A stretch of DNA of 64,000 bases from Kiritimatiellia bacterium (GCA_050949565.1 JBMNFY010000002.1:33367-97366); one strand, 5' to 3'; positions 16,123-21,087 are shown, numbered from the stretch's first letter. Numbers and translations are program-made. The notes: generated from the sequence alone by a model not told the origin.

Positions 16123-19100
16123 GTGGACGCCATCAATTTTCTCTCTCTCCTGAACGAAGAGGCGCTGCTCCGCGCGCGGCATCTCCTCGTCTGCGCGTGC
16201 TGCCTGTTCCTGGCCGCGGCCGCGCTCCTGCCCGCCGCGTGCGGCGCGCTCCGGTATCTCCTCGCGGAGGCCCGGCGCTTCCGCGACTGGGTCAGGCGCA
16301 CCCCCCTGCTCGTCGTCCTGGCCGTGCTCCTTGCGTTCGCGGAGGCTGTCCGCTACGGAGGCTCGAAGGCCGAGCCGCCTTCGCCGCCCGCCCAGGGCCA
16401 GTCGTCCTCGTCATCCACGCAAGGCCAGCCGCCCGCGTCATCCGCCCAGGGCCAAGCGTCCGCGCCGTCCGCCCGGGGCCAGTTGCCCCCGTCGGCCACC
16501 CAGGGCGTGCCGCCCGCCTGCCTCATGCCGCCCCCGGCGGACGGCTTCATCCCGCCGCCGCGCTACACGAACCGCCTGACGCAGGCGCAGTACGACGCGT
16601 GCTTCGCGCTCACGCACGCCGCGACCAACGCCGCCCACGACTTCGCGCCGCCCGCCGGCGCGGCCGTCACCGATTACGTCTCGGGGCACGGCGTCCACGA
16701 CGACGCCTGGTGGGTGCCCCTGCCGTCCGGCTTCAACGCGGGCGGCCTCGAGGATTACTCCCGCTTCGTCACCGCCGTGTGCGCCGCGCCGTCGGGCATG
16801 CTCCTGCTGGACGGCCTGCCCGACCGGCTCGCGCCCGCCGCGCCCGCCTTCCCCGATCCCGCCTCCAACCGCGTCCTCTCGGTGCTGCAGACCCCCTCGG
16901 GCCTCCTGCCGCCGGAGGGGCGGCTCTGGTCCGCGGCCGGGACCGGCGGCCTTCACACCGTCACCTGGAACAGCCTGATGCTCGGGCGGCGCGAGGAGGC
17001 CAGGGCCGACCTCCAGTGCCGCCTCCACCCGGACGGCGATTTCGAATACTTCATCCGCCCCCGGCCCGGCGCGGACCTCTCCGCCGTCACCAACTGGCTC
17101 ATCGGCGCGGCGGACGCGGGCGGCGGCGAGGCCTTCGCCTTCGCGGACGGTGCGCCGCTCTCCGCCGCCCTCCCGCCCGGCGGCGCGGCGCTCGCCCTGC
17201 GCTGGACCGCCTTCGGACGCCTCGACCCCGCCGCCCCCGACACCGACGGCGACGGCCTCACCGACTGGGAGGAGCTGATGGTATACCGCACCGACCCGCG
17301 CCAGCGGGACACGGACCGCGACGGCCTCAGCGACGGCGACGAGGTCCTCAAATACGGCACCGATCCCCTCACCCCCGACAGCCTGGGGGACGGCACCAAC
17401 GACTTCTGGCGGGTCGTCGGCGCGGTCCAGCTCGCCTCCGCGCCGCCCCCGTGGATGGAGGGCGGCGCGGGGCTGGCCCTGCTGACGCTGGAGACCCGGC
17501 TGGAGGCCTCCGCGGGCGTGGCGGCGCTGCGCATCGGCGAGGTCATCGTGCCCGTCGCGCCGGGCACGGCGCAGCTTTCGCGCGTCGCCATCCCCCGGGG
17601 CGTGGACGTCCCGTTCGCGCTGGTCCCCGGCCCCGGGACCTCCGCCGCCGACGCCGCGGTCACGGTGGCCGCGGCCTCCTCCCTCACCGTCGCCGAAGAC
17701 GCGGACAACGTCTTCCGGGTACCCGCCCCGGCGGGCGCCCCCGCGCCCGCGGCCGCGCCCCCGGCGCCCGCGCCCGCCTCCCCCCCGCCGGGCAACGCCA
17801 AGCACGGCACCATGCACAACTTCAATTACGCGTTCTCTCCCGTGCCGCTCTGCCCGCACACCGGGCGGGACACGGTGAACGTGGGGATCGTCGGCGCCCG
17901 GCCGAAGAGCGTCGCGGCCTTCGGCTTCGGCACCGCCCCCGACCTCTCCCCGGCGTTCAGCGTGAGCGAGACGTACCTCAGGGGCAAGTTCCCCCATCTG
18001 GCGGAGACGCCCGGCATGCACACGGTGCAGGTCCCCGTCAAGCTGGGGGTCGTCCTGACAAACAACACCGCGAAAGCGTTCGGCGGGAACACCGACACGG
18101 TGCCCGCCCACCTCTGCGTGTTCGCGGGCGGGGAAGAAGGCGATCCCTTCAACGATCCCCCTCCCGGCAAGTGCCCGTGCTGCCCGGAGCCGAACAACTG
18201 CCTGTGCCGCTGCGCATCGCCGGGCGTCTGCGCGTGCCCGACGTGCCTCGACCCCTACCACACGGGCACCCCGACCAACAGCGCGGGACAGGCCGCCGGC
18301 ACGGTCGACCGCCCCCGCCGGCTCCTGCTGGCGGGCGGCGCGCCCGACACGGTCACGGCCGCGCCCGCGCCGGGGGCGGGCCTCTCGCCGCTGGACGGCG
18401 CCTGCATGCTCTGCGGCTGCACGCAGACCGTCGCCGGCGGCAGCTCCCCCGTGCCCGCCGTGATCTTCCGCTGCACCCCGAGCCTCTCCGCCGCGCCGCT
18501 CGAAGGCTTCGCCGCGACCTCGGGCGTCTTCACCGTGGCCGGCGCGGCCCCGAGCGCCTCGGCCGGGGCGGACGTCTTCACCTGGCAGGCGGGGCGCTTC
18601 TTCAGCCGCGGCCGCTACACGGTCGCCGGGCTGGGCGTGTGCCTCTCCAACGCCCCGGCGGACGCCCCGCCCCGCGTGCAGGCCGGCCACACCAACATCC
18701 TGTCCGTCACGACCCGCGTCCCCGCCGACGGCGGCGGCACGCTCACGTTCAGCGGGCACACGGAGGCCGCCTCGGCCAGAGTCAAAAACCGCCAGACCGG
18801 GCAGTACGAGCCGCTGCAGGACTCCTACGCGGCGTCCGAGTGGCTGGCCAAATACACCGCCGGGACCAACCGCACCGCCGAGGTGCGCTACGCCGCCGCC
18901 CTGACGGGGCAGCGCCTCTTCACGGTCGCCTACGGACTGCCCGGCGCCCTCCCCGGCAGCGTCTCGACCAACCTCGCGTTCGAGGCGGTCGGCACCCGCG
19001 CCGAAACGGTCAACGCCGCGACCGACGCCGACGGGCACGTGTACAACACCAGCGGCATGCCGCTGGGCGGCACCGCCCGCTTCAAGGTCGAGGTGGCCGG

Positions 19101-20004
19101 CGGCACCGTGCCCGACGCCGACATCACCTGGACGATCAAGGAGGGCGCGGGGCGCGTCGCCTTCGCCGGCGGCAGCACCGGCCCCGAGGTCGCCGTGACC
19201 GCGACATCAACCGGTGCCTTCCGGCTGGAGGTGGACATCAAGGGCCTCGTCATCACGCCGCCCCACGTCCGGCCCTACTTCACCGGCACCGTCCTTCCCG
19301 CCGTCAACGTGCCCGTCACCGTCTGGATCGTGAGAGGATCAACGGGAGCCAACCCTGCCCGCGACGCCGACGAGATACCCGGTCTTCTGGCGGACGCCAA
19401 CAAGATCCTGTGGCAGAACGGGCTGACGCTGGTCCAGAGCGGGGCAGTGCATTACGCCGACAATACCGCATGGTTGAACCCGAGCAACACCACGCCGGCG
19501 GCCGTTTATGAATTCGACGCGCTCATGGATAGCTCGTCGGGCACCGGCGGCGTGGAACTGTATTTCGTACAGACGATCACGGGGGGAAACAGGAATCTTA
19601 ATGGCATCAAACGAGACAAGGGCATTGCCATAGCCGCGATCGGCGATGCGAGCACGATCGCGCACGAGGTGTTGCACGCCTGCGGCCTCGTCGACATCTA
19701 TCCCCAGATAACGGTTCTTCCGCAGGAGGATAAGGTCTCCATCCCGGACGTGTGCGCGCCGGAGATGCTGCCGTCCGACTGGTGCGGCGGTTATTACGAG
19801 CCGGGGCTGATGCAGAAGTTCGTGGTCGCCCGCCTGATCATGAGTCCGACGGGTTATGGGAACGTGCCGCTGCCCCGGGCCGATATCCCGTCAGGGAGTG
19901 TGTGGGGATATCGCAATTTCAGTACGACGGGCGATCCGGCCGATGAGTTGGAGTTGAGGAACGTCGGCCTGTCCGGCTGTCATCAGAATCCGGTCAGCGA
20001 ATGA
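16123..20004 (+). CDS. Giant membrane-anchored surface protein with TSP3-like Ca-binding repeats, Cys-rich cluster and C-terminal zincin metallopeptidase
   Basis: N-terminal hydrophobic segments ending in YGGSK; five ~9-aa S/P-x-x-QGQ repeats; [12 protein letters not shown] and [49 protein letters not shown] (HExxHxxG). Confidence 0.85.
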
Positions 20005-20014
20005 GGAGGAGAAC

Positions 20015-21087
20015 ATGAGAAAGGTACTGTTGTTTTATGTCGTGACCATCGCGTTGATGTCTGCGGCCCAAAATCCGGGCGCAAGACCCTTCGACGACGA
20101 GGCCATACGCGACATGCTTGAAGGTTTCGCGATCATGGAGGCGGACAATGAGGGCGATCCCCACCAGCAGAATCTGCCGACCGTGGCGGACTGCTATCGG
20201 ATGATGGAGAAGCGGTGCGAGGAAGCAGGCGTTGACAAGCGGCGTATCCTCGACGTAGCCAAGGAGGAGATCGACAGGTGTGCCGCCTACGTGAAAAGCA
20301 CCGGGCGGACGTCCATTGCCATCAATGCGGTGAGGTTGCTGGACCTCGTGGCGCATTCTGGTGACCGTTCGCTCCTGCCCTATCTGGAGGAAAAGAGCCT
20401 TGATCCTGAAACCCTCAAGTTCATCCGTTCTGCCGCTGCGGAGGTCTATGTCAATATCGCGGATGTGGAGGAGAGCGTGAATCTATTGCGAAAGCTGTAT
20501 GATGACCGTTCTTTCCGGGAGTCGCGATACTACTACGTGAGCGGCCTTTTTCTGCAAAAGGTGAAGTCGGAGGAGAAATCTTTGACAGACGAGGTGAAAA
20601 GAGACATCTGCACTCATTTGCTTGCGATTGTTCAGAGTGCGGATAGTCCGGGGGATGCGCTTGACGCTGAGTTCTTTTTGCGCGACTTTCTCCCGGGATA
20701 CACCAACAGCAAGCAACGGGCAACGCTGGTCCGGTACGCCAACATCCGGGGGATGCGCTTGACGCTGAGTTCTTTTTGCGCGACTTTCTCCCGGGATACA
20801 CCAACAGCAAGCAACGGGCAACGCTGGTCCGGTACGCCAACACCGGTAATGAATACATGACAAACAACTTCAACCCCATCAAAGCGCACTTCGATGCAAT
20901 CCCCCAAAAACAGCGCATCGATCTGCGCAAGCGTTTTCCCGACCTGCCGCCATTGCCGGATGACGCGCCCGCTAGAAGCCCCGTGAAGGTCGCGTTAGCC
21001 ATCATCGCGGGGGGTGTCGCGCTCGCGGTGTGCGCCGTGGCGGCGTGGCTCGCCGTTCGGCGGAGAAGGGTGCGTGAAACGACATGA
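20015..21087 (+). pseudogene. Exported helical protein with C-terminal TM anchor (putative immunity/inhibitor partner), disrupted by a 98-bp duplication
   Basis: GAGGAG RBS 10 nt after the upstream stop; signal-like MRKVLLFYVVTIALMSAA; removing one duplicate copy gives a 324-aa ORF ending ...VALAIIAGGVALAVCAVAAWLAVRRRRVRETT. Confidence 0.75.
20647..20842 (+). repeat. Exact 98-bp tandem duplication
   Basis: 20647-20744 equals 20745-20842 (TCCGGGGGATGCGCTTGAC...GGTACGCCAACA). Confidence 0.95.

Follow-up and report, generated by a model that had tools for sequence, protein, structure and literature searches.

Organization of the locus

The window analysed here, a 64,000-nucleotide (nt) stretch from a Kiritimatiellia bacterium, contains a giant gene encoding a putative membrane-anchored stalk that ends in a metzincin-like tip, followed by a partner gene for a predicted exported helical-repeat protein (Table 1). 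The giant gene is preceded by an accessory-gene remnant, which ends 9 nt ahead of its GTG. Its stop codon ends at 20004 and the partner ATG lies at 20015, so that 10 bases separate the two genes; an AGGAGG-like site precedes the ATG. The window is rich in exported enzymes, and a sensor kinase in it is split within a PAS domain.

Table 1. Features of the locus, numbered along the 64,000-nt window
Feature	Position	Strand	Basis
Accessory-gene remnant, 47 codons, signal-peptide end only	15970..16113	+	80% identical to aa 1-43 of P0212
Giant gene, anchored stalk and metzincin tip, 1293 aa	16123..20004	+	ORF; GTG start
N-terminal hairpin: hydrophobic aa 21-43, Arg-rich loop aa 44-60, hydrophobic aa 61-76, GGSK motif aa 77-82	16183..16368	+	Kyte-Doolittle scan
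27/54-nt tandem repeats, Q/G/S/P-rich linker of variable length	16366..16517	+	TRF
N-module, aa ~140-365	16540..17217	+	Profile search, collinear alignment
Bacterial TSP3 (calcium-binding) repeats	17218..17418	+	Pfam PF18884, 36.3 bits versus cut-off 25
Cysteine cluster, 10 Cys in 25 residues, aa 684-708	18172..18246	+	Sequence
Ig/PKD-like domain	19000..19272	+	Weak Pfam PKD match, E 0.035
Junction motif (10 residues), where GC3 falls and identity to P0003 collapses	19252..19281	+	Sequence
Predicted metzincin zinc-endopeptidase tip, aa 1061-1293; zinc motif 19663..19695; Met-turn 19831..19848	19303..20001	+	AlphaFold model, Foldseek, conservation
Partner gene: signal peptide, helical-repeat domain, C-terminal TM, Arg-rich tail; split into ORFs 20015..20860 and 20776..21087	20015..21087	+	ORFs, intact versions, model
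98-bp tandem duplication, frameshift in partner after aa 243	20647..20846	+	TRF (2.1 copies, 99% match), self-blastn

The stalk

A first-pass annotation of this DNA had described N-terminal transmembrane (TM) segments with a GGSK motif, a repeat linker, TSP3-like repeats and a cysteine cluster, and we located each of these by hydropathy, repeat, Pfam or direct sequence analysis. The hairpin layout and the conserved GGSK motif align in the related loci L001, L002, L016, L056 and L075. By the positive-inside rule, the loop would lie inside and the remainder of the protein outside, and such a two-helix anchor would retain the protein in the inner membrane of the producer. Most of the stalk is spanned by 17 homologues, although the gene calls of six lack the N-terminal anchor and two more are partial. 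One homologue, P0001, is longer by 9 residues, owing to one extra unit in the Q/G/S/P-rich linker. An Atlas lead that marked the N-module as 'NIDO-like' (0.94) was unconfirmed by Pfam.

Pfam places TSP3_bac in two stretches of the giant protein (E 5e-9), and a PDB profile search with the TSP3 region matched only Bap and EF-hand-like chains. The cysteine positions of the cluster are conserved among the aligned homologues, and 60 of 148 representatives of the tip family have the Ig/PKD-like segment ahead of the tip. Stalk segments are themselves mosaic between homologues, and a dN/dS of 0.34 places the stalk under purifying selection.

The stalk is also a compositional outlier. In 300-nt windows, the GC content is 0.71-0.80 across ~16050 to 19349 and 0.49-0.67 in the flanks on both sides; in 1-kb windows, it is 0.75-0.76 at 16001-19000 and at most 0.67 in the remainder of the 64 kb. 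The GC content at third codon positions (GC3), 0.92 over the giant gene as a whole, is 0.953 in the stalk (16123..19302, residues 1-1060), 0.778 in the tip (19303..20004, the last 233 residues) and 0.70 in the partner, with a range of 0.502-0.857 among the 13 other genes of the window. In 30-codon windows, GC3 remains at 0.90-1.00 until residue ~1050 and then takes values of 0.80, 0.73 and 0.67-0.90, which places the composition break at ~19270-19320. These values bear out the first-pass description of extreme GC with G/C third positions over the first ~3.2 kb and of codon usage that relaxes near 19320. However, the C-terminal enzyme had been taken as the odd part; since the tip has a GC3 like that of the neighbouring genes, the outlier is instead the stalk.

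The same step occurs in L001 (0.9 to 0.57-0.70) and L002 (0.92-0.97 to 0.33-0.38), both distant relatives of the window protein (28-29% protein identity), and is therefore no assembly artefact of the window. Near-saturated stalk GC3 is kept in genomes of 51-62% GC, at identities down to 28%. This saturation may have been left behind by GC-biased gene conversion, itself arising from constant tip-swapping recombination.

A metzincin-like tip

The AlphaFold model of the tip has a pLDDT of 91.7, and its best Foldseek matches in the PDB are PAPP-A (E 2.4e-5), ulilysin and ADAM-8 (both 4e-4); all nine matches at E<=0.001 are pappalysin or ADAM chains. The metzincin clan has the zinc-motif consensus HExxHxxGxxH/D. 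The tip carries HExxHxxGxxD; all 39 of the 39 tips aligned share H121, E122, H125 and D131, and the glycine is the consensus residue but is conserved in fewer than 90% of the tips and replaced in some homologues. M180, at least 90% conserved in the alignment, lies within RLLMYG and would form the Met-turn below the zinc site. On its zinc motif, Met-turn motif and modelled fold, the tip is thus predicted with confidence to be a metzincin zinc endopeptidase, which sharpens the earlier call of a metallopeptidase.

The tip resembles the pappalysins (PAPP-A, ulilysin, mirolysin) and adamalysins (ADAM/reprolysin, fragilysin) in fold (Foldseek probability 1.00, E 2.4e-5 to 1e-3, TM-score at most 0.55 on the target) and in its zinc motif followed by a conserved Met. 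By contrast, sequence identity is only 10-17%, and the cut-off is not reached with any model of Pfam or NCBIfam; the Pfam reprolysin-like (M12B) and pappalysin (M43) families failed to match the window tip even at E<=10. The L002 tip has sub-threshold matches to Reprolysin_5 and Reprolysin_3 (E 4e-4 and 3e-3; 21 bits versus 27 and 18.7 versus 22.4). An Asp serves as third zinc ligand, there is no evident pro-domain and the domain is C-terminal, as it is in 146 of the 150 listed representatives of its family. That family comprises 346 representative clusters at E<=1e-3 and is new; it has no name in Pfam or NCBIfam. Among the listed representatives, 59 of 150 are shorter than 300 residues, and several consist of a signal peptide and the tip only.

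Tip exchange on a conserved stalk

Relative to the window protein, P0002 is 99/91/98.5% identical in its stalk segments and 48.9% in its tip, and P0003 is 99.7/93/86% and 37.3% identical, respectively; P0015 has stalk identities of 40/37% and a tip identity of 70.9%. P0001 carries the whole protein on another contig at 90-99% per segment, with a tip identity of 90%. The identity breakpoints fall at residues ~1052 and ~1107. In AU tests on clades that were picked post hoc, with the identity table already seen, the tip data rejected the stalk clade of the window protein, P0001, P0002 and P0003 (p-AU 3.5e-28), and the stalk data rejected the tip clade of the window protein, P0001 and P0015 (p-AU 7e-72). 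These comparisons indicate that the stalk is conserved and the tip exchanged by recombination, as in polymorphic toxins.

The swapped tip proposed at first pass is borne out in so far as subtypes are shuffled on a conserved stalk, but one enzyme family recurs throughout: it is present in 15 of 15 C-terminally complete homologues and in L001 and L002. Taken to the letter, this is the outcome, all homologues carrying the same tip, that the first-pass annotation had named as counting against its reading. The polymorphism appears from these sequences to be one of subtypes of a single metzincin family rather than of unrelated toxins.

L001 and L002 are paralogues in one other Kiritimatiellae metagenome-assembled genome (MAG). 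Their stalks share 89% DNA identity over 2179 bp (dS 0.23), and their tip regions are saturated (dS 2.4, with 5-18 of ~49 residues identical per block). In all three readable loci (the window, L001 and L002), a small sample, an exported protein starts 10-17 nt past the stop and the partner sequence differs wherever the tip differs, in line with the tightly linked downstream gene that had been noted; the three partners show no detectable relatedness (blastp E>=0.24; hhalign probability 1-2%). A second gene downstream of L001 is 71% identical to the L002 partner and is an orphan partner; neither an orphan tip nor an orphan partner was found in the window. Each of the eight small downstream proteins that we examined carries a hydrophobic signal or anchor at its N-terminus.

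The partner gene

The partner is split into two ORFs because of the 98-bp tandem duplication, and deletion of one copy restores exactly the 324 residues of P0025. Intact partners in other assemblies (P0024-P0027) have 324-325 residues and are identical over residues 1-243. The model of intact P0025 (pLDDT 81.4) is an all-helical repeat of 14 helices, and the single hydrophobic segment begins at residue 289. Its predicted topology faces the periplasm, and the exported helical protein with a C-terminal TM and Arg tail that the first pass had read here is recovered by the ORF map, model and hydrophobicity alike. Among solved proteins, the model has no significant structural match (best Foldseek E 0.04) and the partner no match in sequence; it has no Pfam family.

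The N-module and mid-module of the partner are 99% and 25% identical to those of the window in P0036, 40% and 100% in P0033, and 10% and 87% in P0048, so the partner appears to be a mosaic whose modules assort independently. P0036 lies on a contig of the same length as that of P0001 (276,730) and is possibly the neighbour of P0001, whose tip is 90% identical to that of the window; yet the mid-module of P0036 is only 25% identical, so the partner does not simply vary in step with the tip. The partner represents a new family of predicted exported, modular helical-repeat proteins. A frameshift at a C-run truncates three other partner clusters, and in the present genome the giant ORF is intact while the partner is frameshifted. 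Such breaks would be surprising in an immunity gene that is essential, except if the truncated soluble form still works or the breaks are assembly errors.

N-module relatives with RHS repeats

A profile of the N-module, built from the close family of the window protein only and searched against the ORFs of 79 loci, matched six of 1174 ORFs (L016 4e-12, L075 4e-12, L002 5e-11, L001 3e-10, L003 3e-8 and L056 1e-6). The module is common, in collinear alignment, to RHS-repeat and TSP3-rich giants of Kiritimatiellaeota and Lentisphaeraceae MAGs. No RHS, haemagglutinin, LXG, PAAR or MafB domain was found in the giant protein itself (Pfam, E<=0.1), so the absence of an RHS signature holds for this protein, but the same N-module also heads RHS-repeat toxins in relatives: Pfam scores RHS repeats in the L016 and L056 giants at 47 and 81 bits (cut-off 22). 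Those giants have low-GC3 tips followed by small exported genes, and their loci contain orphan cassettes, each an RHS C-terminus with a small gene, that are 54-90% identical to the C-terminal 230-600 residues of the giants. The present stalk family carries only metzincin subtypes, and RHS repeats with other C-termini occur on the N-module in L016, L056 and L075.

An accessory gene sits directly upstream of the related giants. Residues 23-147 of P0212, the protein to which the window remnant is similar, match a profile of the 195-residue genes upstream of the L016, L056 and L075 giants (E 3e-19).

Discussion

We consider it somewhat probable that the locus is a two-gene polymorphic module of the effector/immunity type. 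The giant protein would be held in the inner membrane by its N-terminal hairpin, and its extracytoplasmic remainder (N-module, calcium-binding TSP3, Cys knot and Ig-like domains) would present the C-terminal metzincin. Homologous recombination at or just past the Ig/tip junction would exchange at least three tip subtypes and leave the stalk nearly unchanged. The partner, translationally coupled 10 nt downstream, would be a periplasm-facing ARM/HEAT-like helical-repeat protein tethered by its C-terminal helix, and most likely binds and blocks the cognate tip, protecting the envelope of the producer. On this proposal, the tip would exit the cell and be toxic to other bacteria, with a periplasmic target.

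In polymorphic toxin systems, recombination exchanges a variable C-terminal domain behind a conserved N-terminal region, and PMC3482391 lists HEAT-repeat proteins among their immunity proteins and zincins among their toxin tips. Like the Imm-HEAT and Imm-Ank proteins described there, the window partner is an all-alpha repeat scaffold right after a toxin-like tip; unlike them, it is predicted to be exported and tethered by a C-terminal TM, and it has no Pfam family and no sequence match or significant structural match among solved proteins.

A close likeness is to Rhs/YD-repeat polymorphic toxin loci, including L016 and L056 from Kiritimatiellaeota MAG contigs: both kinds have a conserved N-terminal region with an exchangeable lower-GC3 C-terminal enzyme and a small exported gene directly downstream, orphan copies occur in L016 and L056 and an orphan partner in L001, and the hairpin, N-module and TSP3 block of L016 and L056 are homologous to those of the window protein. 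In contrast to them, the window protein lacks RHS repeats and with them an Rhs cage around the tip; its tips all belong to one family and the window holds no orphans. In CdiA/CdiI and colicin-type pairs, the cognate protein is encoded immediately downstream, and the window likewise has a long stalk, a junction-swapped tip and an adjoining downstream gene; as in E-colicin pairs, variation is between subtypes within a single enzyme family, for which the partners would be the matching counterparts. Unlike CdiA, the window protein is anchored by a two-helix hairpin and lacks a TPS domain, haemagglutinin repeats and a CdiB-like transporter.

The first-pass annotation had proposed an undescribed effector/immunity class with contact-dependent delivery. 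Stalk/tip exchange, the linked exported gene and the predicted topology, including the periplasm-facing partner, speak for such a class, whereas the single tip family, the odd stalk and the question of delivery do not. We found no delivery machine, outer-membrane translocator or secretion-system genes in the 64-kb window and none of the trafficking domains or secretion systems considered (T5SS, T6SS, T7SS, PVC, TcdB/TcaC, PrsW, MuF), with Pfam and NCBIfam showing TSP3 only. These searches gave no evidence for contact-dependent delivery, and the tip family also includes small stand-alone secreted proteins.

Because there is one tip family with short stand-alone members, the tip may be an ordinary secreted protease. 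A surface-anchored or secreted enzyme would degrade nutrient, matrix or host protein without an interbacterial role, the partner would be a periplasmic inhibitor or chaperone that silences it until export, and the subtypes would reflect substrate range. Structurally, the tip comes closest to proteases that are secreted and extracellular (pappalysins, ulilysin, mirolysin, ADAMs and fragilysin); its family has many members and also occurs alone behind a signal peptide, and the window holds many exported enzymes and no secretion-weapon genes. Protease-inhibitor operons are known, such as serralysin with Inh and staphopain with staphostatin; these inhibitors are small beta proteins, and the logic is alike in that the protease crosses the compartment where its inhibitor resides. 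We know of no polymorphism or shuffling of these inhibitors together with the enzyme. We nevertheless regard this explanation as rather unlikely, as it leaves unaccounted for the unrelated partners that track diverged tips on 89% identical stalks, the orphan partner of L001, the same N-module on RHS toxins with orphan cassette arrays, and the sharp recombination breakpoints.

A long adhesin or fibre, with tip and stalk diversifying under phage or host pressure, the peptidase acting in self-processing and the partner in assembly or anchoring, would suit the TSP3 and Ig-like domains, Cys knot and variable linker typical of surface fibres and the mosaic stalk segments; it is improbable given the invariant catalytic residues, the purifying selection on the stalk and a partner that changes with the tip and not with the stalk. 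That the composition step marks a chimeric assembly or one recent insertion of foreign DNA, with no biological system, is barely credible despite other possible defects in the window (the 98-bp duplication and the split sensor kinase), as one reading frame continues through the junction, P0001 has the whole protein on another contig and the step recurs in L001 and L002.

Returning to the effector/immunity-type module, we tentatively suggest, as a possibility short of even likelihood, that hairpin, GGSK motif, ~220-residue N-module, TSP3 and the upstream exported 195-residue accessory protein form a route of toxin presentation or export that is undescribed and confined to Kiritimatiellota and Lentisphaerota, with interchangeable payloads (RHS cages or metzincin tips) and a gene-conversion footprint in the stalk GC3.

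Polymorphic toxin systems have been catalogued by delivery domain, and to our knowledge almost none has been characterized in the PVC superphylum. We found no description of a platform domain that RHS toxins share with a new metzincin tip family, nor of the exported, modular helical-repeat partner family. The stalk, with a GC3 of 0.95 in a genome at about 0.75, offers a clean natural test case for recombination-driven GC bias. If the tip is toxic and the partner protective, a periplasm-acting metzincin would join the interbacterial effectors, the pair would offer a protease and inhibitor with natural specificity variants to study, and the locus would prompt one to ask by what route a giant anchored in the inner membrane gets to an adjacent cell.

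Organization of the two-gene unit

The unit consists of two genes on the + strand, flanked on one side by a divergently oriented sensor-kinase gene and on the other by a convergent gene for a 1238-aa protein. The first encodes a giant protein in which a stalk (residues 1 to 1060) carries a C-terminal tip (residues 1061 to 1293), and the second (20015..21087), preceded by an AGGAGG-like site, starts 10 bases past the giant stop codon and encodes the partner, the candidate immunity protein. Beyond the TSP3 repeats, searches of Pfam, NCBIfam and PDB sequences named nothing in the giant, and a 'NIDO-like' Atlas lead (0.94) for its N-terminal block, the N-module, was unsupported by Pfam on six members. 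The named homologues all come from Kiritimatiellia or Kiritimatiellae MAGs. A consensus scan revealed no sigma-70 promoter, and terminators were not above shuffled expectation.

Features of the two-gene unit in the window and of two related loci
Feature	Position	Strand	Remark
Accessory-gene remnant	15970..16113	+	first 47 codons only
Giant gene	16123..20004	+	1293 aa ORF
Giant: N-terminal hydrophobic segments	aa 21-43, aa 61-76	+	Arg-rich loop between
Giant: GGSK motif	after second hydrophobic segment	+	
Giant: Q/G/S/P linker	after GGSK motif	+	encoded by 27/54-nt repeats
Giant: N-module	after Q/G/S/P linker	+	~220 aa, unnamed
Giant: TSP3 calcium-binding repeats	after N-module	+	sole Pfam family above cut-off
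Giant: 10-Cys cluster	between TSP3 repeats and PKD/Ig-like domain	+	
Giant: PKD/Ig-like domain	before tip	+	weak match
Giant: C-terminal domain (tip)	protein end	+	233 aa, HExxH motif
98-bp near-perfect tandem duplication	20647..20846	+	frameshift after aa 243 of partner
Orphan RHS C-terminal cassette arrays	L016 13951..17657; L056 16996..20909		

Two ORFs overlapping the stalk in other frames, 15993..19511 (+; 1172 aa) and 16438..19038 (−; 866 aa), were rejected as genes; their products are Arg/Gly/Pro-rich, and the frames are open because stop codons are scarce in DNA of 75% GC. Six of the 17 stalk homologues (P0002–P0005, P0013 and P0015) begin at internal positions, some on contigs of up to 1.97 Mb, reflecting either assembly frameshifts in the extreme-GC 5′ part or decaying copies.

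The neighbouring sensor histidine kinase (13248..15592, −) is split over the overlapping ORFs 14240..15592 and 13248..14291, which are in different frames and divide its PAS_3 domain (model positions 3–48 in one and 45–89 in the other); either a frameshift or faulty assembly accounts for the split. The kinase is followed by a receiver-domain ORF (12916..13278). Elsewhere in the window lie an exported 1063-aa protein that is CotH-kinase-like and has a chitobiase C-terminal-type domain (8809..12000, +), the 1238-aa protein, which has a signal peptide and matches no Pfam or NCBIfam family (21217..24933, −), and two regions of lower GC that are likely defence islands. One, at 25226..30048, encodes an Eco57I-type methylase together with a T5orf172/ResIII protein. 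In the other, at 54017..63652, an HsdR type I restriction subunit (E 9e-174) and a SIR2_2 protein accompany an unnamed 1554-aa protein (GC 0.50, GC3 0.50).

The tip as a predicted metzincin

A model of the tip, built from an alignment of 39 tips, has a pLDDT of 91.7 and a pTM of 0.90. A Foldseek comparison with the PDB placed pappalysins at the top (PAPP-A, 2.4e-5), followed by ulilysin and ADAM-8 (4e-4) and, at lower ranks, by snake-venom metalloproteinases, mirolysin and fragilysin, with TM-scores of at most 0.55. All 39 tips keep the H, E, H and D residues of the HExxHxxGxxD motif, and at least 90% keep the methionine of RLLMYG. The tip reaches no curated-model cut-off in Pfam or NCBIfam, and only the tip from locus L002 gives sub-threshold reprolysin-like matches. 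On its predicted structure, the tip is a metzincin.

At E ≤ 1e-3 the tip family numbers 346 representative clusters, against 133 at 1e-10; in 146 of the 150 representatives listed, no more than 130 aa separate HExxH from the C terminus. The domain is carried by anchored giants, by long signal-peptide proteins, by ~340-aa proteins with a signal peptide, an Ig domain and the tip, and by ~245-aa proteins with a signal peptide and the tip; it had no match in plasmid or phage collections.

Exchange of tip subtypes between stalks

The stalk search yielded 21 matches among 8000 scored candidates, 17 of which cover most of the stalk and 4 the TSP3 repeats only. The first-pass annotation had proposed a conserved stalk with exchanged tips. 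Exchange is borne out at the level of three tip subtypes, whose distribution does not track the stalks, but all 15 C-terminally complete homologues end in this one enzyme family (the other 2 of the 17 are C-terminally partial). The stalks of P0002 and P0003 are 91–99.7% identical to that of the window over residues 400 to 1000, with tips of 48.9% and 37.3% identity, respectively, whereas P0015 pairs a stalk of 37–40% identity with a tip of 70.9%. In P0003, identity falls to 86% over the last stalk segment (residues 1000 to 1065) and breaks immediately past the junction motif, at residue ~1052; the break in P0002 lies within the tip, at residue ~1107. Maximum-likelihood trees of stalks and tips are incongruent: the tip data reject the stalk clade of the window, P0001, P0002 and P0003 (p-AU 3.5e-28), and the stalk data reject the tip clade of the window, P0001 and P0015 (p-AU 7e-72), the clades having been chosen post hoc from the identity table. 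P0009 and P0010 are sister stalks with different tip subtypes.

The compositional step

The stalk has a GC3 of 0.953, the tip one of 0.778 and the partner one of ~0.70, with 13 other genes of the window spanning 0.502–0.857; within the giant, GC3 drops at residues ~1050–1065 (19270–19320). The compositional break that had been noted at the stalk–tip boundary is thus real, with one correction: the tip and partner fall within the range of the window genes and therefore look host-like, so that the part that stands out is the stalk. The high GC of the stalk is partly driven by its amino acids, because Ala, Gly and Pro account for 38% of its residues; GC3 is independent of this effect. The step recurs at L001 (stalk 0.84–0.97, tip 0.57–0.70) and L002 (stalk 0.91–0.97, tip 0.33–0.38), whose giants are 28–29% identical to that of the window, and is thus present outside the window's assembly.

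Downstream partners

In the window, tandem duplication of a 98-bp stretch splits the partner into two ORFs; the resulting frameshift cuts its helical domain off from its membrane anchor. Intact partners of 324–325 aa, identical over residues 1 to 243, occur in four other clusters (P0024–P0027), and the duplication may be genuine or may stem from misassembly. Three further clusters (P0023, P0028 and P0029; 283–284 aa; 1, 2 and 4 members) run out of frame from a C/A run corresponding to window ~20899..20908 and end early without the anchor, through either homopolymer slippage or sequencing error. The model of the intact partner P0025 (pLDDT 81.4) consists of a signal peptide, a twelve-helix ARM/HEAT-like solenoid and a C-terminal membrane helix, with no significant PDB neighbour. 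The partner family gave 42 matches among 731 candidates and is mosaic, because its own N-module (residues 20 to 110) and mid-module (residues 161 to 245) assort independently.

Downstream genes were compared at three loci, namely the window and the paralogous pair L001 and L002, which lie in a single further Kiritimatiellae MAG. The stalks of the pair are 89% identical over 2179 bp (dS 0.23, dN/dS 0.34), and divergence between the two tip regions is saturated. At both L001 and L002, an exported ~250–270-aa protein starts within 12–17 nt after the giant. The three partners show no sign of common origin (blastp E ≥ 0.24; hhalign probability 1–2%); one 54-residue stretch of 31% identity to the L002 partner has a probability of 1.8%. 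A second downstream gene at L001 is 71% identical to the L002 partner, with no tip ahead of it. Directly upstream of the L001 giant lies a 585-aa ORF (7416..9173, −) that looks transposase-like by eye.

The N-module and Rhs toxins

A genome-collection scan keyed on TSP3-repeat patterns kept 79 loci, 73 of them TSP3-only. An N-module profile built solely from the window's close family matched 6 of the 1174 ORFs of these loci, at L001, L002, L003, L016, L056 and L075; an N-module alignment search of 640–2000-aa proteins returned the known family only. The L016 and L056 giants (2486 and 2439 aa) have the hairpin, N-module and TSP3 repeats in the same order as the window giant. Unlike it, they carry Pfam RHS repeats (47 and 81 bits), end in a low-GC3 segment (0.59 and 0.43) followed by a small exported gene, and are accompanied by orphan cassettes 54–90% identical to their own last 230–600 residues. 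Behind the complete orphan cassettes there is again a small exported gene; the ~190-aa protein that it encodes has a hydrophobic segment at its N terminus and is 81% identical between the two loci. Several cassette C termini share a Cys/His-containing motif that may be of the kind typical of NlpC/P60-LRAT-like enzymes. This layout is that of a textbook Rhs polymorphic toxin locus, and because N-module relatives show it, the odds are raised, by analogy, that the common N-terminal block would be a toxin platform.

A 195-aa exported accessory gene is conserved directly upstream of the giants at L016, L056 and L075; it was not found at L001–L003 or, apart from the remnant, in the window, and Atlas gave hypothetical proteins only. 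In the stalk protein P0212, a longer piece of this gene is fused in frame to the stalk, whose first membrane helix is missing.

Discussion

The locus had been read as a polymorphic effector/immunity system; the underlying observation is confirmed, and the interpretation finds support in part. Shuffled tips, linked exported genes and an N-module shared with Rhs toxins favour this reading, whereas the single enzyme family and the lack of secretion genes in the window do not. Also against it, the giant is predicted to be anchored in the inner membrane, with no route to another cell seen, and the partner is broken in the window and truncated at the C-run in three other clusters. The tip of P0001, 90% identical to that of the window, counts against it as well, in that it may be paired with a partner (P0036) whose mid-module is only 25% identical. 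A non-antagonistic protease with its own resident inhibitor is the main rival explanation; such an ordinary protease would agree with the presence of a single enzyme family on every stalk and with the free secreted forms, and we consider it rather unlikely. Within the literature searched, we found no publication on polymorphic toxins of Kiritimatiellae, on Rhs toxins of Kiritimatiellota or on interbacterial metzincins with immunity proteins. On balance, we lean slightly towards the locus being a variant of polymorphic effector–immunity systems, a candidate in which the platform, the metzincin tip family and the partner families would all be new.
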